Origin: Endomicrobiales bacterium
GTDB lineage: Bacteria > Elusimicrobiota > Endomicrobiia > Endomicrobiales > JAFGIL01
Assembly (NCBI GenBank): GCA_016929635.1
Contig: JAFGIL010000039.1
Span: 3,251 to 67,250 of the forward strand
Length of the DNA: 64,000 bases
Direction: 5' to 3'
Part shown: piece by piece, positions 6,001-51,927 of the stretch
Layout of the letters: each line of letters begins with the position of its first letter
Position numbering within the stretch: the stretch's first letter is position 1
The notes under the pieces: generated by a model
Seen by the model: only the letters and a program-made list of their open reading frames with translations
Told to the model about the DNA's origin: nothing
Databases searched by the model: none
Translations under genes and position numbers: made by a program

Positions 6001-6302
6001 CAACGGAAGGCACTCACAAGGTGCTTAAATCCAACAATATCCCTGCGGAAATAGTGGGCAAGATAGGAGAGGGAAGCACCAAAATTCTTGATCTTATCAA
6101 AAGTGACAAAATCAATCTTATAATAAATATCCCTTCAGGACGCGGCGGAAGGCATGACATGAAGCCCATGAGGAACCTTGCTGTCCTGCATGGCGTTCCG
6201 TGCATAACGACTATCCAGGGCGCGCAGGCAGTCGTCAACGGGATGGAGTCCGTATTAAAAGAGAGTTTTTCGGTTAAGTCGATACAGGAATACATAAAAT
6301 AA
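3045..6302 (+). CDS. carB: Carbamoyl-phosphate synthase large subunit, paralog 2 (full length, TTG start)
   Basis: Canonical N-terminus [31 protein letters not shown] Shine-Dalgarno (SD) sequence, taaggag, lies upstream of the TTG. 1085 aa with both ATP-grasp halves. Confidence 0.95.
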
Positions 6303-6420
6303 TTCAAAAATTAAAATTAAAAATGTAAAATTACGGTATCCCTCCTTGGCGGGATTATTTAAATAAGAAACCGCAGGCGACACATTAACTTTGATTTTTG
6401 CATTTTGATTTTTGAATTTT
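6301..6420. repeat. Long imperfect hairpin built from A-rich/T-rich heptamer words, with a central GC mini-hairpin
   Basis: The left arm aattcaaaaattaaaattaaaaatgtaaaatta is approximately the reverse complement of the right arm ttaactttgatttttgcattttgatttttgaatt. The centre carries atccc...gggat. It lies between the carB2 stop and the pyrG SD. Confidence 0.55.
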
Positions 6421-6432
6421 ATAAGAGGTATT

Positions 6433-12320: not shown

Positions 12321-12923
12321 TTAACTCGCAGCTTTGTTTACCAGCTTTGTTTTTGCTATTTTCCCGCGCACAACGCCGGCTGTCTGTTCATCGCCCAGGA
12401 ATATGTTAATCACGCGTATATTGTCCCTGCTTTCAGGAATTTTAACTTTTTCAAACAGGTTTACGCGCTGTGTTGTTGTACGCAGCTCTTCCCGAAGCAG
12501 ATTTATCTGCTGTTCGATAATCTCTCTTTCTTTTTTCAATGACAGAAACTCCTTAAAAACCTCAACTGCACGGTCTATCCATAACGGTAATCGGAAAATA
12601 TCATATTTTTTTATTGTGAAATTAGCTTTCTTGAAAACCGGGATATCAACACCTGCAATGCTTGCAGCATCCGTCTCAATGTTATCGAGCTTAACGATAT
12701 CCGTAAAACCAACTTCCTCTCCGAAAACCTCCACCCACGACATTATCTCGTTCTTCATATCCGATTCTTTGTCAGAAACAACCTGATAGTTGTTCCTCAC
12801 TCTGTTTATCTCGGTCTGGAGCTGTTTTCTTTTCAGCTCCAAAGTAGGCAGATACCTTGAAAACCTTTTCAATGCATCTTTCTGCTTCTTCAGTTCGTTT
12901 TTTGTATATTTTATTTTGGACAT
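12321..12923 (-). CDS. ntpD: V-type ATPase subunit D
   Basis: 200 aa. N-terminus KNELKKQKDALKRFSRYLPTLELKRKQL, typical of V/A-type D subunits, and the expected operon position. Confidence 0.85.
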   Translation of the reverse strand: MSKIKYTKNELKKQKDALKRFSRYLPTLELKRKQLQTEINRVRNNYQVVSDKESDMKNEIMSWVEVFGEEVGFTDIVKLDNIETDAASIAGVDIPVFKKANFTIKKYDIFRLPLWIDRAVEVFKEFLSLKKEREIIEQQINLLREELRTTTQRVNLFEKVKIPESRDNIRVINIFLGDEQTAGVVRGKIAKTKLVNKAAS

Positions 12924-12924
12924 T

Positions 12925-13005
12925 TTTAAGTTGTAAGTCCTAAGTCGTAAGTGATAACTACATAATAATTTTTTTTTACAACTTACCGCTTATCACTTAA
13001 GGCTT
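12925..13005. repeat. Heptamer-word inverted module (xxTAAGT x4 ... ACTTAxx-type x3-4)
   Basis: tttaagt tgtaagt cctaagt cgtaagt (12925..12952), a 25-nt A/T spacer, then acaactt accgctt atcactt (12978..12998). It fills the whole 73-nt ntpB-ntpD gap. Confidence 0.6.
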
Positions 13006-39000: not shown

Positions 39001-42000
39001 CTTTTACCTTTATTTTTTCACCAGTTATATCTAACTCCACTTCTAACGGAACTTCTTCGCCTCTTTCATCACGTGCCATTACCTGTTCTATTCCATCTAC
39101 CTTGCTGTAATCTGATTTATAGAAACCCCTGGTATATGTACCATTTTCCTGTTCTACCGGATGCCTTCCTCCCTGATATAAAAGTGTCATAAATATCATG
39201 TTCGAATCAGCAACGTCTGATGCGGCATAAGCTGTATCAGCTGCCAGCTTCCCGAGCCCGCCGGCAAAAACCGTATTTTGTATGGCTATTTCTGAGGTTA
39301 CATATACAATCGGTTTCTGCTTTAGTTCATTAGGTATGCCTGCGATCAACCTGTTTTTTATAGAGTTGTATAGAGGATTAATTATTACATTAAAAGTCAT
39401 ACCTACCAAACCACCTACAAAGTTTATCACAGGCACTACCGGCAACAGGATTATATTCACTGCATAATGCGGGACTACTGTGAGGGATTCAAAGAATGTC
39501 AGGTCCATTTTCAAATTTATGATTCCTAATAAAATCATGTATATAAATGAACCTATCCATAAACCAGGCGAGATTCCTGCTAAACCTGCACTTACCAATG
39601 TAGCTACACTTACTATGGGCAGAGCTATGCTTAATCCGTATATTACTAATGTTACAAGCCCAAGCCACCCGGCATACAAAACTGATAATTTTTCCCCTTC
39701 ACGGGCATGGCCTTGTATAAACTCCCTAAAATTCCATATCTTCGGAGCTTCATGAACGCCTGCAATGCTGAACGAAACAATGCCAACCACTGCTTTGAAC
39801 AATGCATAAACCCACAAATTCAATCTTGCAGGCGGTTGTTCTATATCAACATCTGTATTTCGTTGCACCCATTGCCAGAATTTTGAATTTAATACAATTT
39901 CTTCGGCTTGGTACTTTGTATCAGTCTGAATCCCGTATCCAGCAACACGTGATTCTTCTGAAGTAATAATAGTGACTTTAAGCCCTATCTTTTTTCCTTC
40001 ATCTAAACCCTGCAGAACATATGAATTCCACATCGATTTAATATACGATTGAAAACCCTGTACATTTCCTCTTTTTGAATTGACAATGACTTCAATGGTC
40101 CCCCTGGGATATCTGGACGTCCTGGCCCATTTTACATCATATACCTTTACAAACATTCTTCTGGCTAAATCCTTAATTACCGCTGTAGCTTTTTTAAGAA
40201 CAAGTGCTTTTTCTTCCGGGCCGAAATCTTTTATTTCTTCAGTTCTTTTTGAAACAGGGCGCGCTTGAGGTGTTCTATCAGATAACTCGCCGGTTTTTTC
40301 TAAATATTTAATTACTCCATTAAAAGTAATGTCATCCCTTATAGAGCTGAGCAGATATCCTGCAGGCCAGTCTTCCTTATCCAGAGAGCCGTCTTCTAAA
40401 AGCTTTACATAGAACGGATGCTCTTCCCATTCCCACTCGATACCTTCAAGATCAATCCCATGCCTTTCAACAATTATGCCATACTTCTTCTCCTGAGCGT
40501 ACTTTGTCAAACCATCTGTTTTTATATCTACCAGACTAGGGCTTGAGGCTAAACCATCACGTCTAAGCAGGATATTGAATGGCTCTGAAACAACATCCTC
40601 CATTCTTGTCTCTTCCCTGAAATACTCAAAAACTGCAGACACAAAAAGAGGGGTCTTGCCTGAACCAAAAGTATCTACAAACTTTACCCTTTTCCTTCCT
40701 GAAGCAAGAACCCCTGTGTCCAGAATCTGCCTGTAGAGCCTGCTCGCCTGTTCAAAAGCCTCCAGGTCGCTATCAAACAATCTTTTGGCCCGTGCATTAA
40801 ATTCTTTTTGAAACGCAGCAAAGTCATCTTCCCCAATATCTTCCTTAACCGATAAATATACACCATGCATTTTAGAGTATATCTCTTGTTCATTTTTAAA
40901 CGGATAAACTAATCCGGCCCTTTTCGGTCCGTCTCTGATCTCCTGCATATAAACATCGGTTTCAAATAAATAGCCTGCATCTCTGGCTATATAAACAGCA
41001 AACACTTCATCAGAACCTTCATGTATTATATTATCAACAACTGCTGCTGCTTGCCTTGATTTTTCAACCGTTCCATCTAAATCCGTAAAATCATCCATAG
41101 AGGCAACAAGTGAAAAGCAATCTCTAAACCTTTCCGGGGAAACACCCTTCCTGTCCAGATAATCTTCTACAAACCCATCAATAATGCTGCTAAGGATTGT
41201 CTTACCACCAAAAATCTCTCCCATAATCTCCTGAACTATTCCGACTTCCAGTCTTTCTTGTTCAGTTATGTCTCCGGCTCTTACTTCGGCCAGTTTCCTG
41301 CGAAATCTTTTTCTCATTTCTGTTCTGTTTATTGCATTCCTTCTGCCTTTTGATATCTCAGCAGCTAATCCCGTATAAGCATCTTCAAGCTCTTTATGAT
41401 TCATATTCGCCGTTACAGGAACATCCCACGGTTCTGAAGGGAAACATTCCTTTCTTATTACTTCAAGCATAAAATACAGTTTTCCAAATCCCCTTAATAC
41501 AACATCTGCAACACTAGGCAATAAATCCAATGTCTCCGTTCCTGTGTACAACTCGAGAAATCCCCGCGCTCCTGCAATCGAAGTCCTTGACCAATGGCTG
41601 AAGTGACTCAAAAATTCATCCATATTTAAAACTTCGCCTATTGCCACTATATTTGCAAACTCAAAATTTATTCTATCTATTGCAACAAGCAGATCATTAA
41701 CACTCTGCCGAATTAACTCCATATCAGCGGCTTTGCCCCTGCTACTCTCTGCCAATATTCGGTTTATGGTTTCTTCAACGACAGATGTTTCCTTCTCAAT
41801 ATAAGAGATTAACTCGTTTAATCCATTCCTTAAATCGCTTTCTTCCCATGCCCTGCCGTAATACTGCGTAAACCACAGCAAAAACCACTGGCCGGCAAGC
41901 CTTTCTGCAAGCTTAATATTCTCCGGGTAGTACTCGGCAAGTTTTCTTTGCATCTCTAATTCATGGAGGAACTCAATAAAATGATGGAAATTATCAGTGG

Positions 42001-45000
42001 TTCTTGACTGGGAAAGCTGCCCCGGGTTTACTCTCAATTCTTTCAAGAGATATTCATCAAACAATCTTCTGTTTGATGACCCTTCAATGTTTATCGCCAT
42101 GTATTCGTCTGCTTCATGCTGTCCGTTTAATTTTGCAAATTGAAGGTTACGATGTTCTGTATCCATTCTTGTATCTTTATATCTCTTGTTCCATAGCTCC
42201 GGAGAACCGATATTTTTTAACCGATCAATAAACTCTGTATTCTCTAAAATCTCAACTCTTTGCTCTGAAACTTTTCTTGTAACAGTTGCAATGCCGCCAT
42301 TTTGCGCTGTGCCCATAAGATTTTCTGTTTCGCTGAATTTGACCTCAACTTCACTTATCGGGCATGCAGCTTCACCTTCAAACACTTCCATTGCGCCCTT
42401 TTGTAAAGCCTCTTCAAAAGAAGCCAATTCCGCTGTCGTATCTATTAGCCCATATTCCATAATCGCAATAGCCGCATTATATATGAATCCGCGGTGAGTT
42501 TTATCGTATTTAGACAAAGCTTCTGCAAACTCTTCAACTGTGCCGACATCTCTTCTAATGTCTCTTAACTCGTAAAACAGCTGCGGAGAGAATATATGTA
42601 AAAAATACAGTATATCTGTATCACCGGAAATAGAAAATGTAAACTCCGCTACTTTTAACGCCATATTCCATGCCAATGCTACTGGCTCTGCTTTTGGTGT
42701 TGAGGTACCGAGATCATTTTTTGATTCTTCTTTATCTAGTAATATCCCCAGAAGCTCTGAAGTCTCCCTTGGGCCGGAGACCCATGCACAATAAACTCCG
42801 GTTTTAAACACATCCCGTGCAGCGCTACCTCTGTGCATCGAACCATCAAAGTATATTGCACTCTTCCTGCTAAATCCATTATACCTGAGCGTTCTTAAAA
42901 TTGTATCTGCCTTATTAGTCAGGCTAATCTGAATATAATCATGCATCGGGGATATGAGGGGCATTGCATGATAAATTTCCACCATTGCAGACATTGCCAG
43001 TTCAAGCTCATCTTCTGATAAATCATAGTGCTGGAGCATCTCTTCTCTTTGAGAGGACATAAAGCTGCTGACTTCTTCGAGAAAATCATCAGGATCAGTT
43101 CCCGGACGCTCTCTTTCAAGTGCTTCCTGATTCAGATATATTCTGCCTTCATAACCCATTCTATCGTCTCTTCTAAAGAATTGCCCGTATTCTGATTCCA
43201 ATACTGCCTGAATTATATCCTGCTTAAGTGCCCCAAATAAAAACTCATTAGTATCCACCCGCATTATTGGTATAGTTCTTTCTTCTATCTCGCTTAACTC
43301 GCCCAATTGAGTGACCCTGTATACTTTTAAGCCTGATTCTGCATGCAAAGAAAACAATGAACGAAATTCTTCTTTATCTTTAATATATTTAATAAATTTA
43401 TCCAGATATACATATATATACGAGGCCCGAGGAGTATCTGTTTCAAATGCTGCTGTTGTTACTATCTCAACTTTTATCCCCTGTCTCATTAGTTCAAGCA
43501 TTAGTTCAAAGTTGGGATTATCCTTACGCATATACATAAATTCATAATCGTAACCACCCACCAAAGTCCCGTCCAAATCAAAAAATGCTACTTTAACACC
43601 TCTTGCTTTTGCCGCCGCAACATTTAAAAAGTTATAATTTCTTTGCCTTTCATCTTTTGATACTAAGCCTTCCCTTATCGATTTCACCCCCAATGCCATT
43701 GGATTAAAATGTTTATCAGTTCTACCGATTTTTATTAATTCACGATTGAGGGATATCAAATCTTTCAGCTCGGAATCATTCATATCGCTTCTTGGTTTAA
43801 ATGGAACCTGACGCAGGTAAAAAGCAATATTAAATACATACTCTTTTAAAGCATATGTTTCTGCATATTCGGAAAGTTTTTGGATTACTGCATTATCTAT
43901 ACGCTGGTCCTGGAAAATATTAATAAGCGCCATTACTTCATCCACGTTCCACGTCCCGGGGGTTGTTAGTAATATATTGAAAATTCCTTCATGTATTGCG
44001 TATCTTTCATTTACTGTTTTTAAAAAATCTAATACCTGCTGGCCATGTTTATCCTTAACCTGCCTCCACTTCTCTTCCAATTCAGTTTGCGATGTGCCAA
44101 AAACCTGTATCTCAATAATCCTCGCTAACTCCTCTTCTCCGATTTCCTCCGGATCAAAAATATCTAGTAAATCTTCAATAGATTTTCTTAATTCAGGCCC
44201 AAAAATTCTCGGCGACTCACCCCTGTTTAGTTTATATTTATAGTCAACGTATAAATTACGTATCTTAGTCTGTAATTCTACTTCTCCTAAAATATGTGCT
44301 AAAAATGCTAATCTTTTTAATGATTTAAGCCAATCCTCAACCGGTTTGTCTTTATTTGATAACTTGAAACCATTAGTATAGTTTCTTTTATAATGAGCTA
44401 TTACATTATTTATAATCTCATCTCTGCTCATCTGTTGAATTGACTCATTCAGGATAGTTAAATCCCCATAATAACCTGCAAATGGATCAATATACGGTTT
44501 TTTTGAAACCCCGATATCTATTGTTAGTTCTGGAATCCCCCTGCCTGACACGGTTACATTCGCACCTTTTTCCCCAATTGTTACTTCAAAACCAAATAAA
44601 CGCAATTGATTTGCAAACTCCTTTGCCAGCTCCACGCGTAATTCATTCATCAATACTTTAGTTAATTCGACATCTTCTAATCTTAAACAAATCCTTGTAT
44701 CAAGATCACTAATATAATCCCAATCAATCTGATCATCTGAATTTATATCAGTATATGCGCTCCCGAATACCTCAATAAAAAATCTTCCCTTGAAATTATA
44801 TCCTTCCAGCAACTTGTTAACGGATGTCTGCAATATTTCAACCACCCTTACATCCCCATCCTGAGATTCTTTAACCGGCAACATATAAGCTTCATTAATT
44901 GAGACTGTTTCGATATACCCTATTGGAGTGCCATCAAGGGAAGTCTCTATCCGTTTTGCCCTGACATGATATGTATCAACCGAACGGATAGCAGGCGGTG

Positions 45001-48000
45001 CTATATCAAGAAGTTCTTTTTTTGTGGCTTTAGGCCTTTCAATTCCCGGTAAAGCCGGAATATAAACAAAACCGGCATCGGGTGAATCATCATCAATAAT
45101 TCTGAAGTCTGCATCAATATGTGTGGAGATTGGATTAAAACAAGGTAGAATGACTAAATCCTGCTCAATACTTAAATCTGCAGGCACTTGCGCTAACTCA
45201 ACTAACACAGGAGGGCCTCTAACATCCTTGCTATCTTCTAACCATTTCAGCATATTTGCTTTTATATCATCACTAACAACGCCTGCAATCCAGTAAAATA
45301 AATCAGGATAATTATTATAAAGCGCTTCGTAGATTTCCGGATTATACGGATCATTCTCTACCATTTCTAAGAATTTTTTGACATCTCTGCCCCTCTCACC
45401 TTTTTTCATAAGAGATTCTGGTGTTATGCTTAAAACCATGCGGATCGGCTCTTCACCGGTGAGGATATTTTTAAGAAATCTTCTGCTTTTTGACGAGTCA
45501 CTATCAAAAAATAATCTTGTAAATTCCCTTTTCATCGTACGGTTGGAAGGGTCATTCAGCGTTTCTATAAATTTAATAACTTTGCCATATTTTAAGCCAT
45601 ACTCAGAGTGTTCGATTAATTCCTTTGCTGTATTTGTAGTACTTACAACATAGTTTTTTATTTCTATAAAATATAACTGGCCGTCCTTCCTTGCCACAAT
45701 ATCTATTTCCGCTGTAACCATAGATAATCCCAGGTATATTATTTCAAAACCGGCTCCTTCAAGGGCTTCTGCGTGTTTAAGCTCCCCCAATTCTCCGAAT
45801 ATACTTGTACTTCTTTCATAAACAACGCTCAACCCTGATTCTATCCTGAATATCTTATTTTCCATGCCAGGAACATTTACAAATTTTTCTATAAGGCTAA
45901 AACTTTCTTCGCTTAACACATCAGAATGATAGATATTTCTCGACGCCTTTAATAATTTCAGAATTAATGCATATTGTCTATTTTCAAGTATTTTCCTAAA
46001 CCAGTCAGCTTTCGCCATTTTTAACAAGAATAATAACAGTCTAACCGATGATGTTTTTTCCGGTATGTCTATTAATTTTTCCAACGTCTCCAGTTCTTCT
46101 ATATCTCCTGACAAAATAGCAGCAGCGAATCTTGCTTCTTGGTCTTTTTTAACTAATCCGCTTTCTCTTAATAGATCAAAAATCCGATCCAGGATTTCAT
46201 ATGCTGTTTCCAGTTTTGTAGATGATAGTTTTGTCCCATCCAAATTTTCTATTATTGATTTTTTATAAGGTCCTTCAGGTATAGCATGTAAATCCAAAAA
46301 TTCTCTCAATTTTTCTTCCATATTTGGATTAAGATTTCTTCGGAATATTATTCTACACTGCCTAACCTGCTCTTTAGAAAGTCCTAATTTATGTACAATT
46401 CTCATAAAATCTACGGTTTTCTGTTTAAAACTAGACAACAGAGCTTGACTTTTTTGTGCTTCAGAAAAGATTATAGGAGAATCTGATAGGCTGGATTCCC
46501 TCTCAATTAGCGTAATAAAACTTGATACTAAAGCCGCTCTTCTTTCAACTTCTGCAATGGTTTTTGAATTTTTCAAAATATATCCTATCTCCTCTTTATA
46601 TTTAACCTCAATTCCTAGCTCTGCTAATTTTTGTCTAATTTTATGTTCATTGCTTGTAGGCAATGTTGAAGCAACTTTCATCCACTTGGGGAGTTTGCCA
46701 ATTGAAACCAGATACAAATATAATGAATTCCATATAAAATGCGCTAATGTGCTTGCTATGTAAGATATTAAAGGCGAAAGCAGGGGTGATATTGGCAGGG
46801 TAATATACGAAACTAAAATATAAACTGAGGTAAATATAGTAGCAGGTATAAAAATCAATAAATCTCCAGCTGTTGGAGGTTCTTTCTCAACTATCCATCT
46901 GACAATTATATGTATTGCTGAAAAAACTATTATGCTTGCTGCCCAGGATATTAAATAACTGTATGCGTTCGCTCCCAATAAAGAGAAAATGCCTTGTATT
47001 ATTAAACCTCTGAGCAAATACTCTTCCCAGAAAGGCGCTGCCAGAATAGTTGCAATATGAGCTTTTGTGCCTTCCCCGAGCCATCTCTTTGCTATCGGGT
47101 CAACCACCGAACCGGGTTTGGAAGTGATACGAGCAATTAAATCAGCCAGCCTGCTGCCAGTCCCTGGAATGGAATCTGATATATCATCAAGACCGGTAGC
47201 CTGATATATGTCTGTCTTTTGTTCTGTTTCGGGATCAAACTGGTTTATGTCTCCGGTTTCGATGCTGTAAATAAAAGTTTCCGGGTTCTGGAGATCGCTG
47301 CAGGTAACCGTAATTAATATTGAATCATCCCCTTTTTCTTCCAGTCCTATATTTAAGCCTGAGCCCTTAAAAGTCACATCCAATATCTCCTGAACTTTTT
47401 CTATACCTCCTTTTTTGACTTCGGCCCCTAACTTTTTTACGTTCTCTAAAACCTCTTTATCAAGAATTGTTTTGGTATAGACCCTGCCCGCTAAAACCTT
47501 TTCTCCGGGAGATGACTCGTCGGTATGCATTAATCTTGTTAACGTTTCAAGCGCCAGCATGTCAACAGGTGCTGGCCCGGAGATATTAGACAAAATCCTG
47601 CTTTGCTGCTGAATCAAATCAGAATATACTGATTCGGCAAATGTTGTATCCTCCGTTACATTTGGAGTGATTACAATATATGGAACACCTTTTTCTTTAA
47701 ATATCCCCTTTAAACCTGATGTATGGAAACCACCGGTAATAAGCACAACCACATTCTCGTAATCAGTAACTGGTAATCGGTCATCAGTTTGTATTTGTTG
47801 ACTGATTACTGATGACTGATGACCGATTACTTTGCAGTTTGCAAACAGGCAGTCATTTCTTTTCAAGTTTACCGCATAGTAATCATTTAAAAGTTGCAAA
47901 TATGCTGAGATTCCGGAAAGTTTGCCGTTACCAACGTAACGCGTCCATAATAGCTCAAATTTTGCGAAGTTTTTATTTATATATTCATAATCTTCGGCTG

Positions 48001-49171
48001 ATATTTTATATGACAAATAATCCCCAAGATAACGCGTAAATTCAATAAGAAACAATATCTCGCGCTCGCTTTCTTTTTGCGCCAGGCGCAACCTGATCTC
48101 ATCCAATAATCTCTGTTCCTCTTTAATAAGCTCAAGAGGATTGATTCTTTGATTTAAATCAAGATTTGCAAAAAACGTCTTAAGATTCGGGAATTTATCT
48201 AATACCGAAGGTTTTTTATCTGCTATCCTGGAAAGATATATATAAAGCTCATTTGCTTTCGAAAAATTCGCAGTCCTTTCAATTAATAAGCTGTAAGTGT
48301 TATAAGGAAGCTTGCTCTTTAAAAAAATAATGAATTCCTTCATCTCCCTTGCAACAGCTTTATAATCGACTCTCTTCGATGTTTCAATCGAATCCGTAAA
48401 ATCAGACAGATTTTTGAAAGAACCAAGATCCACACCCAGCTTTTCAGCTTTTCTAATAAGGTAGTCATAATATTTTTCAGGTTTTAATTTTCCGGCTTTA
48501 AACTTCTTAACTACTTTATTCAGTTTTTTATTACTTCTGTTATAGTACCTGTCTTCCAGCCCGGTTAAATCGTCTTTGATGTCTTCTAACTTTTCTTTTA
48601 TCTGCGGCTGCTCCCTAACAATCCTGCTCAGCCTTAACATATTTTCCGTATGCAATTTTTTATTTTCCACTCCGATTAAAAGGTCATTTCTCTCTGACAC
48701 GGCAGCATAATGCTCGGCACCTGTAAGTTTACCGCTGTTTAGAAGCGCATCCAGAATTTCATTTCTAAGTTTTTTATCCCTGATACGGGTAAGCCAGGAA
48801 GTATTGAGCGCACCGCAGCTCCCTTCTATGTACACGTTCTTCAATGAATACTTTTTGTCCAGCACTTCCAATATTTTAGAAATATTTCTTTGCACCTCGG
48901 GGTGGCAATGCAGGTCTTGGATGTTTACTACTAGCGTAGAGCGTTTAGCGGATAGTGGATAGTTATCCTCCCCTATACGCTCTACGCTCTCCGCTATCCG
49001 CTGTTCTGTGATTCTCCCATATGAGGAAGGAAGCACAAAGCTGTCAAAAACATCTTTGTATCCGTTTATAGCACGCCTTTTTTCGACAACCGCATGTAAA
49101 GGCTGGCTTATTATAAACGTAAACGTGAAACAACTTATGGTTAATAGTGCGATGATTTTTTTATAGTTCAT
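27035..49171 (-). CDS. Giant (7,378 aa) signal-anchored polytopic multidomain protein of unknown function
   Basis: A single open frame of 22,137 nt. Every other frame across the interval is broken, and the longest competing ORF is 139 aa. Several independent conserved motifs fall in the same frame (see the sub-features). Confidence 0.9.
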   Translation of the reverse strand: MNYKKIIALLTISCFTFTFIISQPLHAVVEKRRAINGYKDVFDSFVLPSSYGRITEQRIAESVERIGEDNYPLSAKRSTLVVNIQDLHCHPEVQRNISKILEVLDKKYSLKNVYIEGSCGALNTSWLTRIRDKKLRNEILDALLNSGKLTGAEHYAAVSERNDLLIGVENKKLHTENMLRLSRIVREQPQIKEKLEDIKDDLTGLEDRYYNRSNKKLNKVVKKFKAGKLKPEKYYDYLIRKAEKLGVDLGSFKNLSDFTDSIETSKRVDYKAVAREMKEFIIFLKSKLPYNTYSLLIERTANFSKANELYIYLSRIADKKPSVLDKFPNLKTFFANLDLNQRINPLELIKEEQRLLDEIRLRLAQKESEREILFLIEFTRYLGDYLSYKISAEDYEYINKNFAKFELLWTRYVGNGKLSGISAYLQLLNDYYAVNLKRNDCLFANCKVIGHQSSVISQQIQTDDRLPVTDYENVVVLITGGFHTSGLKGIFKEKGVPYIVITPNVTEDTTFAESVYSDLIQQQSRILSNISGPAPVDMLALETLTRLMHTDESSPGEKVLAGRVYTKTILDKEVLENVKKLGAEVKKGGIEKVQEILDVTFKGSGLNIGLEEKGDDSILITVTCSDLQNPETFIYSIETGDINQFDPETEQKTDIYQATGLDDISDSIPGTGSRLADLIARITSKPGSVVDPIAKRWLGEGTKAHIATILAAPFWEEYLLRGLIIQGIFSLLGANAYSYLISWAASIIVFSAIHIIVRWIVEKEPPTAGDLLIFIPATIFTSVYILVSYITLPISPLLSPLISYIASTLAHFIWNSLYLYLVSIGKLPKWMKVASTLPTSNEHKIRQKLAELGIEVKYKEEIGYILKNSKTIAEVERRAALVSSFITLIERESSLSDSPIIFSEAQKSQALLSSFKQKTVDFMRIVHKLGLSKEQVRQCRIIFRRNLNPNMEEKLREFLDLHAIPEGPYKKSIIENLDGTKLSSTKLETAYEILDRIFDLLRESGLVKKDQEARFAAAILSGDIEELETLEKLIDIPEKTSSVRLLLFLLKMAKADWFRKILENRQYALILKLLKASRNIYHSDVLSEESFSLIEKFVNVPGMENKIFRIESGLSVVYERSTSIFGELGELKHAEALEGAGFEIIYLGLSMVTAEIDIVARKDGQLYFIEIKNYVVSTTNTAKELIEHSEYGLKYGKVIKFIETLNDPSNRTMKREFTRLFFDSDSSKSRRFLKNILTGEEPIRMVLSITPESLMKKGERGRDVKKFLEMVENDPYNPEIYEALYNNYPDLFYWIAGVVSDDIKANMLKWLEDSKDVRGPPVLVELAQVPADLSIEQDLVILPCFNPISTHIDADFRIIDDDSPDAGFVYIPALPGIERPKATKKELLDIAPPAIRSVDTYHVRAKRIETSLDGTPIGYIETVSINEAYMLPVKESQDGDVRVVEILQTSVNKLLEGYNFKGRFFIEVFGSAYTDINSDDQIDWDYISDLDTRICLRLEDVELTKVLMNELRVELAKEFANQLRLFGFEVTIGEKGANVTVSGRGIPELTIDIGVSKKPYIDPFAGYYGDLTILNESIQQMSRDEIINNVIAHYKRNYTNGFKLSNKDKPVEDWLKSLKRLAFLAHILGEVELQTKIRNLYVDYKYKLNRGESPRIFGPELRKSIEDLLDIFDPEEIGEEELARIIEIQVFGTSQTELEEKWRQVKDKHGQQVLDFLKTVNERYAIHEGIFNILLTTPGTWNVDEVMALINIFQDQRIDNAVIQKLSEYAETYALKEYVFNIAFYLRQVPFKPRSDMNDSELKDLISLNRELIKIGRTDKHFNPMALGVKSIREGLVSKDERQRNYNFLNVAAAKARGVKVAFFDLDGTLVGGYDYEFMYMRKDNPNFELMLELMRQGIKVEIVTTAAFETDTPRASYIYVYLDKFIKYIKDKEEFRSLFSLHAESGLKVYRVTQLGELSEIEERTIPIMRVDTNEFLFGALKQDIIQAVLESEYGQFFRRDDRMGYEGRIYLNQEALERERPGTDPDDFLEEVSSFMSSQREEMLQHYDLSEDELELAMSAMVEIYHAMPLISPMHDYIQISLTNKADTILRTLRYNGFSRKSAIYFDGSMHRGSAARDVFKTGVYCAWVSGPRETSELLGILLDKEESKNDLGTSTPKAEPVALAWNMALKVAEFTFSISGDTDILYFLHIFSPQLFYELRDIRRDVGTVEEFAEALSKYDKTHRGFIYNAAIAIMEYGLIDTTAELASFEEALQKGAMEVFEGEAACPISEVEVKFSETENLMGTAQNGGIATVTRKVSEQRVEILENTEFIDRLKNIGSPELWNKRYKDTRMDTEHRNLQFAKLNGQHEADEYMAINIEGSSNRRLFDEYLLKELRVNPGQLSQSRTTDNFHHFIEFLHELEMQRKLAEYYPENIKLAERLAGQWFLLWFTQYYGRAWEESDLRNGLNELISYIEKETSVVEETINRILAESSRGKAADMELIRQSVNDLLVAIDRINFEFANIVAIGEVLNMDEFLSHFSHWSRTSIAGARGFLELYTGTETLDLLPSVADVVLRGFGKLYFMLEVIRKECFPSEPWDVPVTANMNHKELEDAYTGLAAEISKGRRNAINRTEMRKRFRRKLAEVRAGDITEQERLEVGIVQEIMGEIFGGKTILSSIIDGFVEDYLDRKGVSPERFRDCFSLVASMDDFTDLDGTVEKSRQAAAVVDNIIHEGSDEVFAVYIARDAGYLFETDVYMQEIRDGPKRAGLVYPFKNEQEIYSKMHGVYLSVKEDIGEDDFAAFQKEFNARAKRLFDSDLEAFEQASRLYRQILDTGVLASGRKRVKFVDTFGSGKTPLFVSAVFEYFREETRMEDVVSEPFNILLRRDGLASSPSLVDIKTDGLTKYAQEKKYGIIVERHGIDLEGIEWEWEEHPFYVKLLEDGSLDKEDWPAGYLLSSIRDDITFNGVIKYLEKTGELSDRTPQARPVSKRTEEIKDFGPEEKALVLKKATAVIKDLARRMFVKVYDVKWARTSRYPRGTIEVIVNSKRGNVQGFQSYIKSMWNSYVLQGLDEGKKIGLKVTIITSEESRVAGYGIQTDTKYQAEEIVLNSKFWQWVQRNTDVDIEQPPARLNLWVYALFKAVVGIVSFSIAGVHEAPKIWNFREFIQGHAREGEKLSVLYAGWLGLVTLVIYGLSIALPIVSVATLVSAGLAGISPGLWIGSFIYMILLGIINLKMDLTFFESLTVVPHYAVNIILLPVVPVINFVGGLVGMTFNVIINPLYNSIKNRLIAGIPNELKQKPIVYVTSEIAIQNTVFAGGLGKLAADTAYAASDVADSNMIFMTLLYQGGRHPVEQENGTYTRGFYKSDYSKVDGIEQVMARDERGEEVPLEVELDITGEKIKVKVWKQVIKGEKGASTVYYLDCPSINYELYPDWPWDRFRQELLLGKGSVEVLKALQIQPTVIHMNEAATSFTAPFAMDDEHFKDTRYVFATHTPVKAALRSYEEGWWNRTGIPDKYRGAFVRDGRMQLTQGAMNLMQGDHGMIYGVSEKHEEVSRDMFPEFSHVIHSVTNGSHIGFWRHPDLKKVRSKAKLAEVKKRLKGDMIGRVKELTGVELDEDKPVALFTRRMVEYKRLWMILSDDGIVDLMLKDKEEGGLGMQLVVAGNPYGDYGLWMIKSIKSLQEKYPGKIVYIPGYDEGDLSVNRMLFAGGDFILHIPRLREEASGTSFQMASINGVPSANSQDGAPLEHIKEFDPETGNGNGFMMAQDNREALMDMLRKISDIYYNDADAWRDVSWNAFKSSEGEMSAVRMVKDYYNHLYLPVYKAGKIDSLENMQPGRSVITNVEQGGEVTVTVDLGIHDLSPRAATVELWSNFTGEWRAHKMTPLRQISSIEGREVWQYGITFTPLETGTFKYTVRAGVHDERTGDYKILYWFDGPGNDGIVSVKEREGGYFATQEISMASAASLPLVILLTAALLLWPVWFMGRSNVVVWITRALGMRASPEGKETLIKGIEGIKFVSREKTGFFEVPEASKNTIHVNPFVHAILSEYPRLGKAFLYAQGIIGFEAYHLIHPDKSKSTLKIEFPAYLINRILPVFLGAGIGMILVFSGFASGVWVLIAIAVSIPVITALISWYEFMAWRRRRIQELKDEKLEKRLQNLSEKLIASRYPLKILRDLFELGRPAVPVIIEWLRQTHNKEKEARMLAVDWLGENNYKEALDVFGEIVKEEKDSEVIQRTVRAIGRIQDKKDTAIHKFILSRYIESKDDASIRYLTLKSMAGMETDEAYEILLDRLRNDSDPFVRNEAMESLVKMKYPKAVDVIIERVNEDEAIVVQIFAVRLLGEINDEKAVGPIIDLFHRNLSIGIPSKDLSYVIGYALAGIGTQRVAEFAVELLDEGFYLTLYGILDFNRPMFPELIAWLKNNSGKKDNERSVLIGHMREADIRRETDFIIELLENDQSGDVRAKAAAALGKVRKSKVFKALANSLLNDPISEVRVSAAEALGEQGSPKAVDYLVERLRNDEDYKVRTVSAKSLGLIRSPRAVSILIEKLSTDESPDVRLASADALGEIRTTEAVGPLLDRVRYDEDNTVKMYAVGALERIGDQAAVPYLAEILESVPLDNANLRARIGTVSGNITLSTVNRIINAPANRGVREIIQTVRSDVLRRFLRLQSIVLRAEGQARENWYEFTRSLLRNSPSLKFKPLPRGVKFPEEPEPVDADLLPAYEDVNSLFKTIDAAEGVERMGTYVTTWGRKVLYKRQDGTYFSLKIQKEDEDVEALARERNNLEFLHALKDRERAAGIKDGLKGEWARPAGNDGSIYRVRIPESETVTKTGEQISLAQADGYYTVLVLEETRETLMYLDGSAGMDSSKADMELVRELLGEDIDSTQFENANRMIINDMMKLLEYGIVHPDTIYLYHEELMLRGEERARTGANTAANRLDEASWNWMLFGRMSAPLKSARFSNYRLAGFADVEKLTTISAISEGRYNRRYFSTVGRERPHDRTDTGLVGADPKKIAYYYFGAYLLSLVLTRLSWMDTEEPFVYLGAEDRRQKLAVSLKDTFNQAFVDFSGSEISGLDSVIGDEGWQLMADQLVYFLSGQHAEDVASQDEEAMERLHSMFPGSEVEILSLETLEELDPKREYFRKKSPRNGLMIGNSYNSQDRDLGAINANNPATELWKALCIYSAFAVTENGMKEKKRSDRLIRLWKPLFESLGFWIGYIGVVYGVPLILGFLGVDASIVLSIKDVLMSKTFRLVLYAGLNTIFGLLHKRLFRYNRDLVEWLPDEKPASIPARFGVGLIGALTIHTPVLLHIFGINISSLLPILLPQFLTIPGLFVSIFVLHLVWNNVIARLFGLFALAGSKAGKSVSTNVDRRALLEIFPHQDYLEYLYLYGFGSQLIVNNEDLQVQGLKAKKVFKELRAQWDYISPAANRDKKISLGKVDSKGAIEHFKEIIDYIERNLYILKALIEQEPDNVEEIIEGMEDVSNFADGIKLLLEHKARGSVDVNDVVSKISGLVFSKYYADRYDITVRTGLRAEGELDVSQDKLAYLLLALFVPFRNQNGLEFYINTYNEDGNLVIQIDTNNVFSPTRFKQIGADFIDAVLEELGGALAVTKRGKKNYTIKVTFPLKTETEPVANSMAESLQTLINKINHDYIRHAVEVAQEVSRGERERAIIYCDTTEQAIGTFVAANKFRAVRAVIADLTPTITYDKRNTTVLSRAHNDTNILIIDRSKGTAEERAQIEKEWLETAYEGIEEPRHQERLDMFMEIPEPVPPSPTAKKQAGKTRIAIGCDHGAIELMEALQEKLVEELGLSLKERGIEIVLQPVGVDRDTIASKKAAGENINYPEYGQKVARIVLSGESDLGIVQCGTGFGICMSLEKFAGMRGVVTNNVDAAVVAREKFDANVIALGGRIFTEDDKSVHIDEVLEIIKAWLETEPSPEAAANIEDIETAEKIAAMQSEMSNLPASARGSKIAAVISGIGAVLVPVILWLVGNWIGVPWIMYLIRALSISAGLVLISGSLAMMNQSGYIKDAINISDSKRNNDAISRKQEELNLEIREVIEELNKKYEKQGYVFRDFEDRENPPGEKIDGIAGIDPNNLVDEKRRKVIYIDALAFGLLPEYLKKHIIEKHEAVHLRQFADILPPVARKGSGTDFDELVKYGAKISKKYPWFNPVYVLAKPNSDGKQAYFVISSDSEEARRVYDSPEKYQVSVLFETAFENREGELVGYQGRALFHPCTIEGEDRFICYHGIGLTPSFVHNPGRNFAVGPVYSGFMARDEAEKRSDMSKKLTSADSAVIIPEVDSIVGLEHVWSRNTGLVGVEDLGDFFIPGEKNNTDWVDPVFVSYKPQPLEDIITLEDVLEMPAEMQERVIRSLLEKKGVIKKGMFRKKIDKKTLFDLYIDFLLKNVTSQVALWYEKGYTHGMISRQNISINGHLRDLATAKPVNFDIVDMDLMSLDIVLRMITDLAGYAGMYDRAELIDSIKDKAIHLLRDSFTAGFWDKARNHILSIIAVDDPSWNKEFLIIEREWVLLDIAQEFVDAGILERVGRDDDCIVYRVKQEYHKLSREQFDWNILRDHMAMPSNMVEVANGNVSTIRDEVNAGDKEKKSGWRAEVAPYTNQVIGSISILPNVIRDIIRRALFAARRTANVNRIARESVEAQMDGFSGLRQQYPYAVNRDTVHIVYDERNLESKQKELAALKEAGVNAHGVGFIPKGYNLRKNGFRKQTGIPNLVVRINDRSVPIDVWKNESTGMILIQRRLVNQEALTLYLLTCQLLYRGIIDDDVNEMLIAGQPKSRASNRQSLPEVIFIDNMGMVPGEALQSFNPVYNEDGSVTLSFDALKVTFPDVDKAEDLLRDAEVIADASGVHENMQGFVRQAKASRRVNLVLERGMSFMQRFRKIWQGFLTNTIQSVTSWEVALVMDMSVDEFGVSNLAERITELRDRDNSMWTPLSTLMLRDIYVEDSPGVLTPEIAEKTAELQAAVTKLKQAKIKVSVPVRVTKEEQLQGQGLNNLITNMLTAGLNGIAYDEVYLDFRAMTAPAQQQAVRTWYQGFSREVLSKLPIKKVYFVLPQGLQDLSEDNAVMIESPRELDRMIRMVKSRAVNMKCVVIPSDYYERALSQAEKGERVTTIGVRTKIMRLITRYEPQNPQECFEQSSKSGEAFFMKRSGELLDVNMDFYPDKFKRLCEISDMCLENEIIDEGLLIEVPEMFAEEGRIRQEFDRLVDRIRHNDDMEEQVNAYAEFRGFLVGIACAMAKARYISDIKFEAPEYESAFLKLLLIEIANLDEGIDINEVLKRVTSVEYEHTLPERLQRQSPHQIIAPYIGNFGDIRTWGDRGRGVLVTDLLNILFTHYQRQEPFIVEEAPQAAIAALQQAINAAG
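29750..30560 (-). other. Giant protein: SelO/YdiU-like or other protein-kinase-fold module (tentative, aa ~6204-6474)
   Basis: YTHGMISRQNISINGHLRDLA aligns position by position to SelO HGVMNTDNMSILGLTIDYG. Upstream, ICYHGIGLTPS...GR......G.MARDEAEK resembles LQLKGaGrTPys..GDGR....ssiREfl.sEA. Confidence 0.3.
31120..31285 (-). other. Giant protein: hydrophobic cluster (2-3 TM helices, aa ~5963-6018)
   Basis: SKIAAVISGIGAVLVPVILWLVGNWIGVPWIMYLIRALSISAGLVLISGSLAMM. Confidence 0.5.
31385..31850 (-). other. Giant protein: RpiB/LacAB-family sugar-phosphate isomerase-like module 2 (aa ~5774-5929)
   Basis: RIAIGCDHGAIELMEAL (IAIGsDHaG.eLKe), YPEYGQKVARIVLSGESDLGIVQCGTGFGICMSLEKFAGMRG, and AREKFDANVIALGGR. 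Confidence 0.7.
31940..32190 (-). other. Giant protein: partial RpiB/LacAB-like module 1 (C-terminal half of the fold only)
   Basis: AIGTFVAANKFRAVRAVIA......VLSRAHNDTNILIIDRS parallels RpiB GiG.SIAANK..GIRAA......a...ReHNdaNVL.lG.R. Confidence 0.4.
33120..33600 (-). other. Giant protein: degenerate CPBP-like membrane domain 2 (aa ~5191-5351)
   Basis: Hydrophobic helices carry IFGLLHKRL (FxxxH) and FVLHLVWNN (HxxxN). The EExxxR position is reduced to FESLGFW. Confidence 0.4.
35360..36650 (-). other. Giant protein: HEAT / PBS-lyase-type repeat array (aa ~4174-4604)
   Basis: The unit D..VR..AA.ALG.i....Av..Li..L.d is repeated at least 8 times, for example DPISEVRVSAAEALGEQGSPKAVDYLVERLRND and SPDVRLASADALGEIRTTEAVGPLLDRVRYD. 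Confidence 0.7.
37370..37700 (-). other. Giant protein: beta-sandwich (E-set/CBM-like) module after the GT35 domain (tentative)
   Basis: GGEVTVTVDLG...ATVELWSNFTGEW...MTP......WQYGITF.PLETGTFKYTVRAG has the alternating beta-strand pattern of carbohydrate-binding or E-set domains. Confidence 0.3.
37740..39315 (-). other. Giant protein: alpha-glucan phosphorylase (GT35, GlgP-type) domain lacking the PLP lysine (aa ~3286-3811)
   Basis: Collinear family motifs are present: SEIA..GGLGKLAAD, IHMNEAATSF, FATHTPV, GVSEKHEEVSRDMF, VTNGSHIGFW, FTRRMVEYKR and EASGTSFQMASING. The last is canonically EASGTSGMKAALNG. Confidence 0.75.
39330..39825 (-). other. Giant protein: hydrophobic cluster (about 5-6 predicted TM helices, aa ~3116-3281)
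   Basis: LNLWVYALFKAVVGIVSFSIAGV ... LVTLVIYGLSIALPIVSVATLVSAGLAGI ... FIYMILLGIINL ... VNIILLPVVPVINFVGGLVGMTF. Confidence 0.5.
42780..43600 (-). other. Giant protein: HAD-superfamily-like hydrolase module (aa ~1860-2130)
   Basis: Motif I is VAFFDLDGTLVGG (D1865-x-D1867). A motif II-like EIVTTAAF follows. The distal AIYFDGSMHRGSAARD is only loosely like motif IV. Confidence 0.45.
44500..44850 (-). other. Giant protein: possible Pol-beta-type nucleotidyltransferase-like module (weak)
   Basis: FIEVFGSAYTDINSDDQIDWDYISDLDTRICL has a G-S ... D-x-D arrangement, but the 17-aa spacer is longer than the usual 9-13. Confidence 0.2.
45645..45800 (-). other. Giant protein: YraN/UPF0102-like PD-(D/E)xK nuclease-fold module (aa ~1125-1175)
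   Basis: GELGELKHAEALEGAGFEIIYLG...AEIDIVARKDGQLYFIEIKNY matches the YraN pattern G.GE..A...L...G..I......GEIDlia......fVEVK. Confidence 0.45.
46690..47090 (-). other. Giant protein: CPBP (CAAX/Abi-type) intramembrane protease-like domain 1 (aa ~695-825)
   Basis: All three family motifs sit in hydrophobic helices: FWEEYLLRG (EExxxR), FSAIHII (FxxxH) and AHFIWN (HxxxN). Confidence 0.6.
47670..48931 (-). other. Giant protein: ChaN / TraB / Tiki / EreA-superfamily-like domain (tentative, aa ~81-500)
   Basis: VVNIQDLHCHPEVQRNISKILEVLDKK..NVYIEG resembles the ChaN N-terminal pattern (vvllGE.Hdnp.hH..q...L....lalE). VVVLITGGFHTSGL resembles the C-terminal vvv.G.gH..G motif. Confidence 0.3.
49091..49171 (-). 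other. Giant protein: N-terminal signal peptide / signal anchor (aa 1-27)
   Basis: MNYKKIIALLTISCFTFTFIISQPLHA has a basic n-region, a hydrophobic core and an A-x-A-like end. Confidence 0.6.
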
Positions 49172-49700: not shown

Positions 49701-49736
49701 AAACTGGTCTATTATATAGTATTTAATATTATTATA

Positions 49737-49764
49737 ATTATAAACAAAATTTATGAAATTTCAA
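49737..49764 (-). promoter_or_regulatory. Sigma70-like promoter candidate for the small-ORF + giant-ORF unit (TTGAAA-N16-TATAAT)
   Basis: On the minus strand, TTGAAA lies at 49764..49759 and TATAAT at 49742..49737. This is about 37 nt upstream of the ATG at 49700. Confidence 0.35.
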
Positions 49765-49819
49765 GGGAATTTTTGTGAAATCTTTGTAAAAGTTATTGAA
49801 TTGGCAGGCTATTTTTGAT

Positions 49820-50767: not shown

Positions 50768-50772
50768 CTTTT

Positions 50773-50843
50773 TAGATACTTAATTCTCGATTCTCGATTT
50801 CAAAAACTTAGCATCGAGCATCTGGCATCGAGTATCGAGTATC
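50773..50843. repeat. Heptamer-word inverted module (t-x-GAT-x-C x4 ... g-y-ATCGA x4)
   Basis: tagatac ttaattc tcgattc tcgattt, a spacer caaaaactta, then gcatcga gcatctg gcatcga gtatcga gtatc. It lies between the pdxA start and the surA-like stop. Confidence 0.6.
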
Positions 50844-50849
50844 TATACG

Positions 50850-51902
50850 TTATTCGAGTTCGTTTATTTTAATAGTTGCCTTTGATCTTAGTTTTTCAAT
50901 CCACTTTTCGTATTTTTTCTGAGCATTTTTCTGATATAAATACTGCTGCAGGTCAGGTTGGGCATCTTCATATTTAAACTTGCGGCTGGCTCTTTTCTCT
51001 TCCACCTTGATAATGTGATATCCAAAATCAGTCAATACGGGTTCTGAAATCCCGCCAACGTCAAGGGAAAACGCGGCTTTTTCAAATTCCGGGACCATAT
51101 CGCCCTTGGCAAAATACCCCAAATCACCGCCGCGGTTTGCAGAACCTGAATCCTCTGAGTATTCTTCCACCATATCCCTGAAATCAGCTCCATTATCAAG
51201 TTTCCTTTTAATCTCCTTTATCTTCTTGAGAGCCGCGGATTTCTCCTTCATGGACGCATTTTTATCCAGCTGAATTAATATATGGCTTGCCCTGATTTGT
51301 TCAGACGTCGCACGCTTAAAGATCTGGGCCAGCTTTTCAAGATCCTCTTCATCCTCTTTTTTCAATCCCAGGTTCTTTCCGTCCATTTTTGCCTTAATCT
51401 GGTCAAACAATTTCTTGGTCTGTTCTTCGGTCGGCGTTTCAGTCTTTGCTTTTATCTCCTGTTCGGTCAGTTTCATAACCATCAGCTGTTCCTTGATTCT
51501 TTTTTCGAACTCAACCATTGAGATATCTTCTTTTTTTAACTCGCTTTGAAACTCGGATTCCGTTGTAAAACGGCTTTTCACCTGCTTTATGCCTTCCTCA
51601 ACATCCCTTTTTGAAACCCTTATCTTCTGGTTCCTGGCTTCCTGTTTCAGAATCCTGTCATCTATCATCTGGTCGAGGAGCCTCTGTTTCAACTCCCGGG
51701 TTTTCTCGGGAGTCTGTTCTCCAAGGGGTGTTGCCATTTTATATTGTTCAAGTACCGGCTCGACAATTTTATCAAACTCAGATAGCATAATTGCCTCACC
51801 GTTTACTATAGCCAGCGTCCTGTCAACGACCTTGGCGCTCAGATAATTAAAGGAAAATATAAATAATAATAAAGCCAGAAACAAATAACGTAAAACAAAC
51901 AT
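50850..51902 (-). CDS. surA: SurA-like periplasmic chaperone / parvulin-type peptidyl-prolyl isomerase
   Basis: Signal peptide, SurA_N-like helical region and a PpiC parvulin domain (ASHILI...GGDLGYFAKGDMVPEFEKAAF...GYHIIKV). The synteny surA-pdxA is conserved. Confidence 0.7.
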   Translation of the reverse strand: MFVLRYLFLALLLFIFSFNYLSAKVVDRTLAIVNGEAIMLSEFDKIVEPVLEQYKMATPLGEQTPEKTRELKQRLLDQMIDDRILKQEARNQKIRVSKRDVEEGIKQVKSRFTTESEFQSELKKEDISMVEFEKRIKEQLMVMKLTEQEIKAKTETPTEEQTKKLFDQIKAKMDGKNLGLKKEDEEDLEKLAQIFKRATSEQIRASHILIQLDKNASMKEKSAALKKIKEIKRKLDNGADFRDMVEEYSEDSGSANRGGDLGYFAKGDMVPEFEKAAFSLDVGGISEPVLTDFGYHIIKVEEKRASRKFKYEDAQPDLQQYLYQKNAQKKYEKWIEKLRSKATIKINELE

Positions 51903-51927
51903 TTATGCCCTCCCGAAAATTCAAAAA

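Follow-up and report, generated by a model that had tools for sequence, protein, structure and literature searches.

How does a giant open reading frame (ORF) stay open across two blocks of inverted heptanucleotide repeats, and what are such blocks doing inside a protein gene? The question is raised by a 64,000-nt stretch of DNA, hereafter the window, from an Endomicrobiales bacterium of the Elusimicrobiota (assembly GCA_016929635.1, contig JAFGIL010000039.1, forward-strand positions 3,251 to 67,250), in which an ORF of 7378 amino acids (aa) carries two such blocks, M1 and M2, both within its first 6%. The original prediction, made from the nucleotide letters, had located both modules, named their heptamer words, and placed them in frame, and on re-examination the sequence reads as described. 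We favor, with a probability of roughly 0.55, the view that M1 and M2 are heptanucleotide simple sequence repeat (SSR) palindromes of a genome-wide class whose home is the spacer between ORFs, and that they were fixed in two permissive loops of the encoded protein. They are probably tolerated repeat palindromes and not a dedicated regulatory device. The relevant features of the giant gene are as follows.

27035..49171, minus strand: giant ORF of 7378 aa, host of M1 and M2
49002..48931, minus strand: M1, inside the giant ORF, codons 57-80
49002..48975, minus strand: left arm of M1, AGCGKAK x4
48974..48963, minus strand: spacer of M1
48962..48933, minus strand: right arm of M1, word complementary to the left arm
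48902..48931, minus strand: conserved motif VVNIQDLHCH, aa 81-90, directly downstream of M1
47830..47759, minus strand: M2, exactly codons 448-471, 72 nt
47830..47801, minus strand: left arm of M2, GTMATCA x4 plus gt
47800..47789, minus strand: spacer of M2
47788..47759, minus strand: right arm of M2, units of the ACYGATK type
47723..47752, minus strand: conserved motif VVVLITGGFH, aa 474-483, two codons downstream of M2

In the minus sense, M1 reads agcggat agcggag agcgtag agcgtat / aggggaggataa / ctatcca ctatccg ctaaacg ctctacg ct, and M2 reads gtaatcg gtcatca gtcatca gtaatca gt / caacaaatacaa / actgatg accgatt accagtt actgatt ac. Both follow one plan, in which about four tandem heptamers are succeeded by 12 nt of spacer and then by another four or so built on the complementary word, and the ORF remains open across each. 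The first base of M1 is the second base of codon 57, and the peptide encoded is QRIAESVERIGEDNYPLSAKRSTL. The longest exact complementary blocks measure 12 bp in M1 and 16 bp in M2, as predicted. The arms are not simple mirror images of one another, their blocks being permuted or in shifted register; because the arms are periodic, they pair in a shifted register. In M2 it is the first 16 nt of each arm that pair, leaving a loop of 26 nt. The program TRF made period-7 calls at 47799-47831 and 48969-49002, and the longest perfect tract in the arrays of either module amounts to 2.3 units (gtcatca gtcatca gt).

Modules of this kind are not a product of chance. Self-match at lag 7 reached at least 16/21 at 54 positions of the window, compared with 0-6 positions at lags 4-6 and 8-12, and 13 period-7 clusters were found where dinucleotide shuffles gave 3.2-3.5. 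Five adjacent complementary pairs (6297-6425, 12919-13005, 47758-47836, 48931-49013, and 50770-50856) account for ten of the 13 clusters, whereas no such pair arose in 200 shuffles, and exact complementary blocks of 10-16 bp occur across the five. Two of the pairs are M2 and M1; the other three are intergenic.

50770..50856, minus strand: GATRCTC / GAGAATC module, filling the spacer from the surA stop to the pdxA start
12919..13005, minus strand: TAAGNNG / CTTANNA module, filling the spacer from the V-ATPase B stop to the V-ATPase D start
6297..6425, plus strand: AATTMAA / TTKAATT module (an A/T-rich word), between the carB stop and the pyrG start

These are the elements (listed at 12925, 50773, and 6301) with which M1 and M2 had been likened. 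The common heptamer-arm architecture was borne out; the spacer length ascribed to all of them failed for the 6301 element, whose spacer is 50 nt long, and a simple mirror symmetry of the arms failed for M1 and M2. The first TAA of the module at 12919..13005 doubles as the V-ATPase B stop codon, and the module at 6297-6425 extends from the carB stop to just upstream of the pyrG ribosome-binding site. All three occupy spacers of co-oriented genes; three modules lie in ~4 kb of intergenic DNA versus two in ~60 kb of coding DNA. Head-to-tail 7-nt units above chance, inverted pairs, and intergenic enrichment between co-oriented ORFs, three marks of heptamer SSRs, are all present in the window. Its five modules are built from five different words with unrelated spacers and share no family consensus. 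When folded as RNA, as had been proposed, M1 gave -35.0 kcal/mol (z = -5.66) and M2 gave -23.9 kcal/mol (z = -4.97); the intergenic modules had z values of -3.3 to -4.2, and no shuffled sequence folded as stably as the modules. The module at 50770 is also contained in Logan contig L081 (run SRR13394437), which is 100% identical to window positions 49735-55563. A look-up with pdxA for a second allele of the giant-gene locus returned L081 only, which ends before the giant gene, and for the neighboring 179-aa ORF nothing is recorded.

How the reading frame survives can be read from the variants among the units. The words themselves contain potential stop codons (TAG in AGCGTAG, TAA in GTAATCA, and TGA in ACTGATK). 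Swapping unit variants within the arms would create in-frame stops at left units 2 and 3 and right units 1 and 4 of M1, and at left unit 3 and right unit 2 of M2; units therefore differ at the very positions that had to be kept free of a stop. In right unit 2 of M2, a change from TGA to CGA is matched by the complementary base in left unit 1, inside the 16-bp perfect stem, where the mirrored change is unneeded for coding. This observation implies either that the arms were copied from each other afterwards or that their pairing was maintained.

The giant protein has an N-terminal helix and a domain carrying the motifs NIQDLHC and GGFH, followed by glycosyltransferase-like, HEAT-repeat, and RpiB-like regions. 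Alignment agreed with the original prediction that each module lies just upstream of one of these motifs, and columns N83-C89 (NIQDLHC) were invariant. An AlphaFold model of residues 1-620, based on an alignment of 9 sequences, had a mean predicted local distance difference test (pLDDT) score of 74. Within the conserved region (residues 1-530), pLDDT fell below 50 solely at residues 62-76 and 450-467, the peptides encoded by the modules, and both segments adjoin beta strands that bear the invariant motifs, NIQDLHC at site 1 and GGFH at site 2. The segments are also non-conserved, consistent with the earlier suggestion that they are tolerated as loops. Lengths were counted in 69 homologous N-terminal domains with recognizable anchors. 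At site 1, the distance from G(R/K)(I/V)T to NIQDLHC was exactly 12 aa in 58/69 homologs, versus 27 aa in the window, and M1 is therefore a lineage-specific lengthening. The linker at site 2 is unconserved and ranges from 22 to 58 aa among homologs; since the 40 aa of the window are ordinary for so variable a linker, site 2 is better called overwritten than inserted. The proposal that both segments are lineage-specific insertions consequently stood for site 1 and was qualified for site 2. The same peptides encoded without heptamer periodicity in distant orthologs, which the original prediction had named as a refuting outcome, were looked for among the homologs and did not turn up.

All homologs of the first 620 residues came from Elusimicrobiota/Endomicrobiales metagenome-assembled genomes (MAGs) and were at most 48% identical. 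The N-terminal domain forms a multi-copy family in Elusimicrobiota MAGs (L002-L080), with 227 stretches confirmed by tblastn and up to ~10 copies per MAG, and it heads giant proteins. It had no match in Pfam, among PDB sequences, or in a Foldseek search against PDB; we regard it as uncharacterized for this reason, and the ChaN/Tiki-like label once attached to it found no support.

Other words occupy the same two loops elsewhere, and three homologous loci carry arrays there.

L011 (an Endomicrobiales MAG), site 2: full in-frame inverted module of the CCGGAGN word, GGAGCCC GGAGTCC ... ACTCCGG ACTCCGG
L011, site 1: one-arm array of the same word as at its site 2
L001 (which encodes P0003), site 2: full module, CAAGATG x6 ... 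GATCTTG TATCCTG GATCCTG
L007, site 2: one-arm array

In 846 kb of homologous loci 25 arrays were detected, and five of them lie at sites 1-2, which make up ~2% of that sequence; most homologs carry no module at either site. At L001:1560-1680 the giant-gene homolog is split by a frameshift inside its six-unit CAAGATG array at site 2, and the loss of one unit would restore the frame; this split gene may represent an 'off' allele that occurs naturally, or it may stem from faulty assembly. As a separate observation, a contig of a termite-gut Endomicrobia MAG (L077) contains several heptamer modules with TTACYTN and GTGAAGA words (90-230, 1165-1195, and 4110-4190) and a repeated 20-mer, TATTACTTGCCTTTTATTTA, upstream of its giant-gene homolog.

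The words of the window itself seem to recur in the loops of its two closest homologs, P0001 and P0002 (46-48% identity), when insert peptides are back-translated and compared with the window words. At site 2 of P0002, AYSVERIAD and STLSAIRYPL can be encoded over 27 nt by AGCGKAK and its complement with 0 mismatches, and at site 1 DTRYSMLDA fits GATRCTC with 0 mismatches. For DARSSMLDA and NIEHRESSI, at site 2 of P0001, matching to GATRCTC and its complement leaves 1-2 mismatches. Among 2290 control windows, none came below 5. From these fits it seems that the word of M1, which lies at site 1 in the window, sits at site 2 in another genome, and that the word of the surA-pdxA spacer sits in giant-gene loops of that same genome. 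Site 1 of P0001 was considered as a further module and rejected, the periodicity of its back-translation not being significant.

Words of the window also occur in metagenome DNA. GATRCTC was followed through a single scan of JGI metagenome contigs for GATRCTCGATRCTCGATRC (loci L082-L201). Arrays of this word were present in at least 120 contigs with a GC content of 0.33-0.71. Among the matches listed, an (NAGNATC)n arm lay no more than 120 nt downstream of the GATRCTC array in 20/110 usable cases and upstream in 0/110, indicating that the family has a fixed arm order. Loci with a downstream arm include L113, L120, L124, L127, L163, L168, L170-L172, L176, L177, L185, and L201. The spacers of these modules are unrelated and no conserved core exists among copies; in several metagenome copies, the two arms of one module differ in unit number. 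Some 18% of the GATRCTC arrays, again among the matches listed, lie inside long ORFs. In L118 an in-frame array of this family occupies the linker between the 5′-3′ and 3′-5′ exonuclease domains of DNA polymerase I, and in L181 an in-frame array occupies the loop between two shikimate-dehydrogenase domains of an AroD-AroE fusion; the peptides encoded by the L118 and L181 arrays, EHPVSSIEHRVSSIEHP and RASSIEHRVS, fall between Pfam domains. The M1 word, AGCGKAK, formed arrays in 34 IMG/VR contigs, some with inverted partners. As a rule, contigs that bear arrays carry many of them with different words (540 arrays and 33 inverted modules in 0.99 Mb). Four units was the commonest array length for these non-G-rich words, a count biased by the search pattern. 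In addition, TAAGTCC, found at window positions 12934-12952 within the V-ATPase spacer module, recurs as an inverted module at L215:5553-5641, in an unrelated GC-rich contig of IMG/VR labeled viral that holds several further modules with other words. All window words can be rotated to begin with GAT, but a GAT/ATC anchor was rejected after an unbiased trinucleotide count in 116 other array words showed no GAT/ATC enrichment. Statistics on the co-orientation of genes around modules in metagenomes were discarded, since 'edge' and 'embedded' cases were too numerous with the crude ORF caller used.

Pairs of related contigs (82-91% identity) showed how such sites change. Unit number differed at the same site between L197 and L143 (2 vs. 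4 units) and between L133 and L104 (4 vs. 5 units). In L104:2285-2500 and L133:3455-3640 (82-83% identity) the outer GATGCTC / GAGTATC arms were kept and the inner repeat palindromes differed, one of them being built of 9-nt units. In L100:5915-5975 and L158:6410-6480 wholly different words occupied the same site beside a start codon. In related contigs, then, the repeat site persists while its word turns over.

The modules have counterparts in several described repeat systems. Heptamer STRR (short tandemly repeated repetitive) sequences of Calothrix and Anabaena are said to have been described by Mazel in 1990, and Vioque reportedly located STRR within helix P12 of RNase P RNA in 1997. As reported, those sequences resemble ours in offering several heptamer words per genome and in having arrays that can fill the two strands of a helix within a working gene and leave it intact; they reportedly differ in phylum and in that the STRR host gene is an RNA gene, whereas here it is a protein gene. 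Cyanobacterial STRR heptamers are also mentioned by Rehm et al. (2015; PMC4692102), in whose citations heptamer SSRs are over-represented in bacteria and prokaryotes generally. The heptamer inverted pairs of Xanthomonas (GGGAATC) and Nostoc (GGGGAYT) are the closest described relative of the modules. In Xanthomonas, four units are preferred, and each genome has 70-75 inverted pairs, sited between ORFs that are aligned (PMC4692102). The likeness embraces tandem 7-nt units with four the commonest number, nearby opposite-strand arrays able to form a stem-loop, a preference for spacers of co-oriented ORFs, and variation in length between relatives (PMC4692102), which in the present case was seen in related metagenome contigs. 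Differences also exist. In Xanthomonas and Nostoc a single G-rich word dominates and a G-quadruplex has been offered as explanation (PMC4692102), whereas the window has five non-G-rich words in 64 kb, and G3 tracts are absent from AGCGKAK, GTMATCA, GATRCTC, TAAGNNG, and AATTMAA, so that the window words are not G-quadruplex repeats. The Xanthomonas and Nostoc repeats are under-represented in coding sequence (PMC4692102), whereas complete in-frame modules were found here, recurring at the same loops in homologs.

A further comparison is offered by the TAACTGA heptamer repeats of Beggiatoaceae, Cyanobacteria, and Bacteroidetes, some of which lie inside ORFs at the protein periphery (MacGregor, 2015; PMC4679880). 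Like the modules, they carry stop codons in all frames, are mostly intergenic by start codons, and are common to distant phyla (PMC4679880), and the M2 right-arm units TTACTGA and AAACTGA are one mismatch from TAACTGA. They are nearly always direct repeats of a fixed word, with one inverted case, and have been proposed as binding sites of a translational regulator (PMC4679880). The units of M2 are at least one mismatch off, inverted, and intragenic, and do not form direct repeats just upstream of a start codon; M2 therefore falls outside that family. Our literature search for the literal repeat sequences, and for Endomicrobium together with heptamer, returned nothing.

Under the view of fixed SSR palindromes, the arrays would lengthen and shorten by slipped-strand mispairing in 7-nt steps, a process seen between related contigs and presumed for the window. 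Intrastrand template switching (fold-back copying), or else another module serving as the source of a copy, would make the complementary arm and keep it matched, as suggested by the mirrored unit variants, the fixed arm order, and word families apparently shared between genomes. Within an ORF, as the pattern of unit variants shows, the survivors are those that keep the frame by their total length and have units purged of in-frame TAA, TAG, and TGA. The translated product, judging from the structure model and the missing conservation, would be a disordered surface loop beside conserved His motifs, having no required function of its own. An occupied site would tend to be re-seeded, with renewal starting at the center of the palindrome, so that the site persists and its word turns over; the nested or replaced modules of related contigs and the different words at the same two loops point this way. 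The strong hairpins in mRNA or single-stranded DNA would be a by-product, which may slow ribosomes or polymerases.

Several points weigh against this reading. Slippage and template switching are presumptions for this genome, of whose locus one sequence is available, L081 being identical to it. The shared words of P0001 and P0002 were deduced from peptides and not observed as DNA. Local slippage alone cannot explain either the presence of shared words at different sites or the 20:0 arm order, and some copying, mobility, or functional constraint is therefore needed. The arms have stayed highly complementary despite degenerate units, which could reflect selection for the hairpin and hence a function. 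The AlphaFold model, finally, was built on just 9 sequences with a pLDDT of 74. A bolder reading, which we consider rather unlikely, is that the modules represent a widespread, undescribed class of word-variable palindromes, mostly of 7-nt units and with a fixed arm order per word family, that is renewed at fixed sites by a dedicated process and acts as a regular source of new protein loops. Such a process might consist in a break at the tip of the hairpin, after which slippage synthesis would extend the two ends, or it might involve a copying enzyme, and the loops of the giant protein and the linkers of DNA polymerase I and AroD-AroE would be examples of its products.

Four rival explanations were weighed, and none is better supported than the view of fixed SSR palindromes. 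First, M1 and M2 could be miniature mobile elements, of the type of miniature transposable elements with inverted repeats (MITEs), REPINs, or Rickettsia palindromic elements (RPEs), in which a transposase acting in trans carries a hairpin copy to a new place, where it lands in frame. We think this unlikely. The same word variants, deduced by back-translation, seem to occur at other sites in another genome, the fixed arm order recalls terminal inverted repeats, in-frame copies lie within unrelated housekeeping genes, and some modules are nested, as are small dispersed repeats and REPINs (PMC3116915). RPEs are mentioned as selfish palindromes inserted in frame in protein genes (PMC1779305; PMC10969869); as far as these mentions go, they too are hairpin-forming repeats found also between genes, tolerated in frame, and encoding extra surface segments. 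In keeping with RPEs, M1 and M2 lie in frame in an undisrupted ORF at a non-conserved position that is modeled as low-pLDDT surface loops. RPEs, by the same mentions, measure 100-150 bp and have a family consensus, whereas the modules measure 72-130 nt, consist of tandem heptamers, and lack any consensus, the five in the window having five words and unrelated spacers. REPINs likewise comprise two inverted short repeats that form a hairpin, with fixed orientation, extragenic position, and nesting (Bertels and Rainey, 2011; PMC3116915). They have a conserved sequence, a cognate RAYT transposase, and no tandem 7-nt substructure (PMC3116915), whereas here neither a conserved sequence nor, within the window ORFs scanned against Pfam, a RAYT was found. 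In fact, no transposase, RAYT-like gene, or reverse transcriptase was detected among those ORFs. No flanking target-site duplication was seen at the ends of the 50770 module, the sole module inspected for one, and copies of one word family, GATRCTC, have neither core nor spacer in common. The presence of five different words within 64 kb, unequal arms in several metagenome copies, and differences in unit number between related contigs at the same site also argue against a moving copy. The suggestion that the modules are mobile or templated was supported only indirectly: words appear to recur at other sites (by back-translation) and the GATRCTC family of the metagenomes has a 20:0 arm order, but there is neither a conserved core nor a transposase in the scanned window ORFs, and in related contigs units are gained or lost and words exchanged at sites that are fixed.

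A second possibility is that the modules act as nucleic-acid structures, either as mRNA hairpins (which would make ribosomes pause once past the N-terminal membrane helix, serve for processing by RNase III, or stabilize the long transcript) or as DNA cruciforms or protein-binding sites. The very stable predicted hairpins (z of -5.0 to -5.7), the mirrored variant that preserves the 16-bp perfect stem, the location of the intergenic relatives at operon stop-start junctions, where hairpins commonly modulate expression, and the fixed arm order of GATRCTC, which hints at a strand-reading factor, would all suit such a role. We nevertheless hold it to be quite unlikely. Modules are absent from these sites in most homologs, and the homologs that do have them use other words and positions; word and spacer are unconserved between modules. 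No U-tract follows them, an Rfam scan of the window returned tRNA only with no known family at the modules, and stems of this kind are unwound by ribosomes. The conserved regulatory role that had been entertained for them thus found no support. The core sequences, spacing, or U-tracts of attC sites, HutP-type UAG-N4 sites, programmed frameshift signals, and intrinsic terminators did not fit the modules, and these candidates were rejected.

Third, gain or loss of a heptamer early in the ORF might shift the frame and so turn the 7378-aa protein off or on, as in a phase-variation switch, while arm changes could rewrite the loop. Such a switch seems to us distinctly doubtful. In its favor, the unit length of 7 nt is no multiple of 3, M1 and M2 both fall within the first 6% of the ORF, unit numbers vary between related contigs, and the frameshifted homolog of L001 would regain its frame with one unit less. 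Heptanucleotide SSRs are, moreover, mentioned as participating in phase variation in Haemophilus influenzae (PMC2651432; PMC12721329). A typical contingency tract comprises at least 5-6 perfect units, whereas no array of the window exceeds 2.3, and slippage in them should be rare because their units are degenerate and fixed by stop-avoiding substitutions. An inverted partner is also unnecessary for such a switch. Frameshifts at site 2 of L057 and L021 were rejected as evidence of switching, as no heptamer array lies at the shift; judging from the assembly names, we suspect long-read indel errors, and L001 is the sole remaining candidate among the site-2 frameshifts. Lastly, it is very improbable that the 24-residue segments are functional loops beside the catalytic His motifs, with a periodicity in the DNA that is mere coincidence, since, although both modules directly precede strands with invariant His/Cys residues, the segments are conserved in neither sequence nor length, have low model confidence, and show a 7-nt period with reverse-complement arms that is meaningless for a protein.

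The surroundings of the giant gene are otherwise those of a housekeeping region (carB, pyrG, the V-type ATPase operon, MTHFR, pth, prs, glmU, surA, and pdxA). Two near-identical, GC-rich perfect palindromes, CCGTTCCCG(C/G)AACGGG-N6-CCCGTT(G/C)CGGGAACGG, lie in operon spacers of the V-ATPase/MTHFR region at 14346-14383 and 17325-17362, with predicted folds of -47 to -57 kcal/mol and no heptamer periodicity; they are a second, REP-like hairpin family of the same genome. As both they and the heptamer modules sit in operon spacers, hairpins in such places are a recurrent feature of this genome. A perfect hairpin of ~20 bp flanked by A- and T-runs (8011-8071), situated between pyrG and a convergent HMGL-like gene, looks like a bidirectional terminator. 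Two tandem ORFs resembling the carbamoyl-phosphate synthase large subunit were noted at 58-2721 and 3045-6302, the first lacking the N-terminal half of full carB.

Taken as a whole, the original observation is real and non-random, and its interest is moderate, lying chiefly in how repeats enter coding sequence and are shaped by it. For the giant gene the consequence is modest, amounting to two disordered loops and two strong predicted mRNA hairpins. Of note, too, are three regularities: words apparently shared between genomes, an arm order that does not vary within a word family, and sites that persist as their words change. Heptanucleotide repeat palindromes, hitherto mainly intergenic oddities of Xanthomonas and cyanobacteria, are extended to the Elusimicrobiota, and complete palindromes can evidently live in frame within genes, where the frame edits them by removing stops, with at least one change mirrored in the other arm. 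The four-unit preference of non-G-rich words, if it holds, would call into question the G-quadruplex explanation of the Xanthomonas repeats. Different words at the same two loops, together with replaced and nested modules, point to a mutational process that retains the site and renews the sequence. If this is true, it could be a source of trouble in assembly and annotation, where genes appear split, and it could be a general route to new surface loops.

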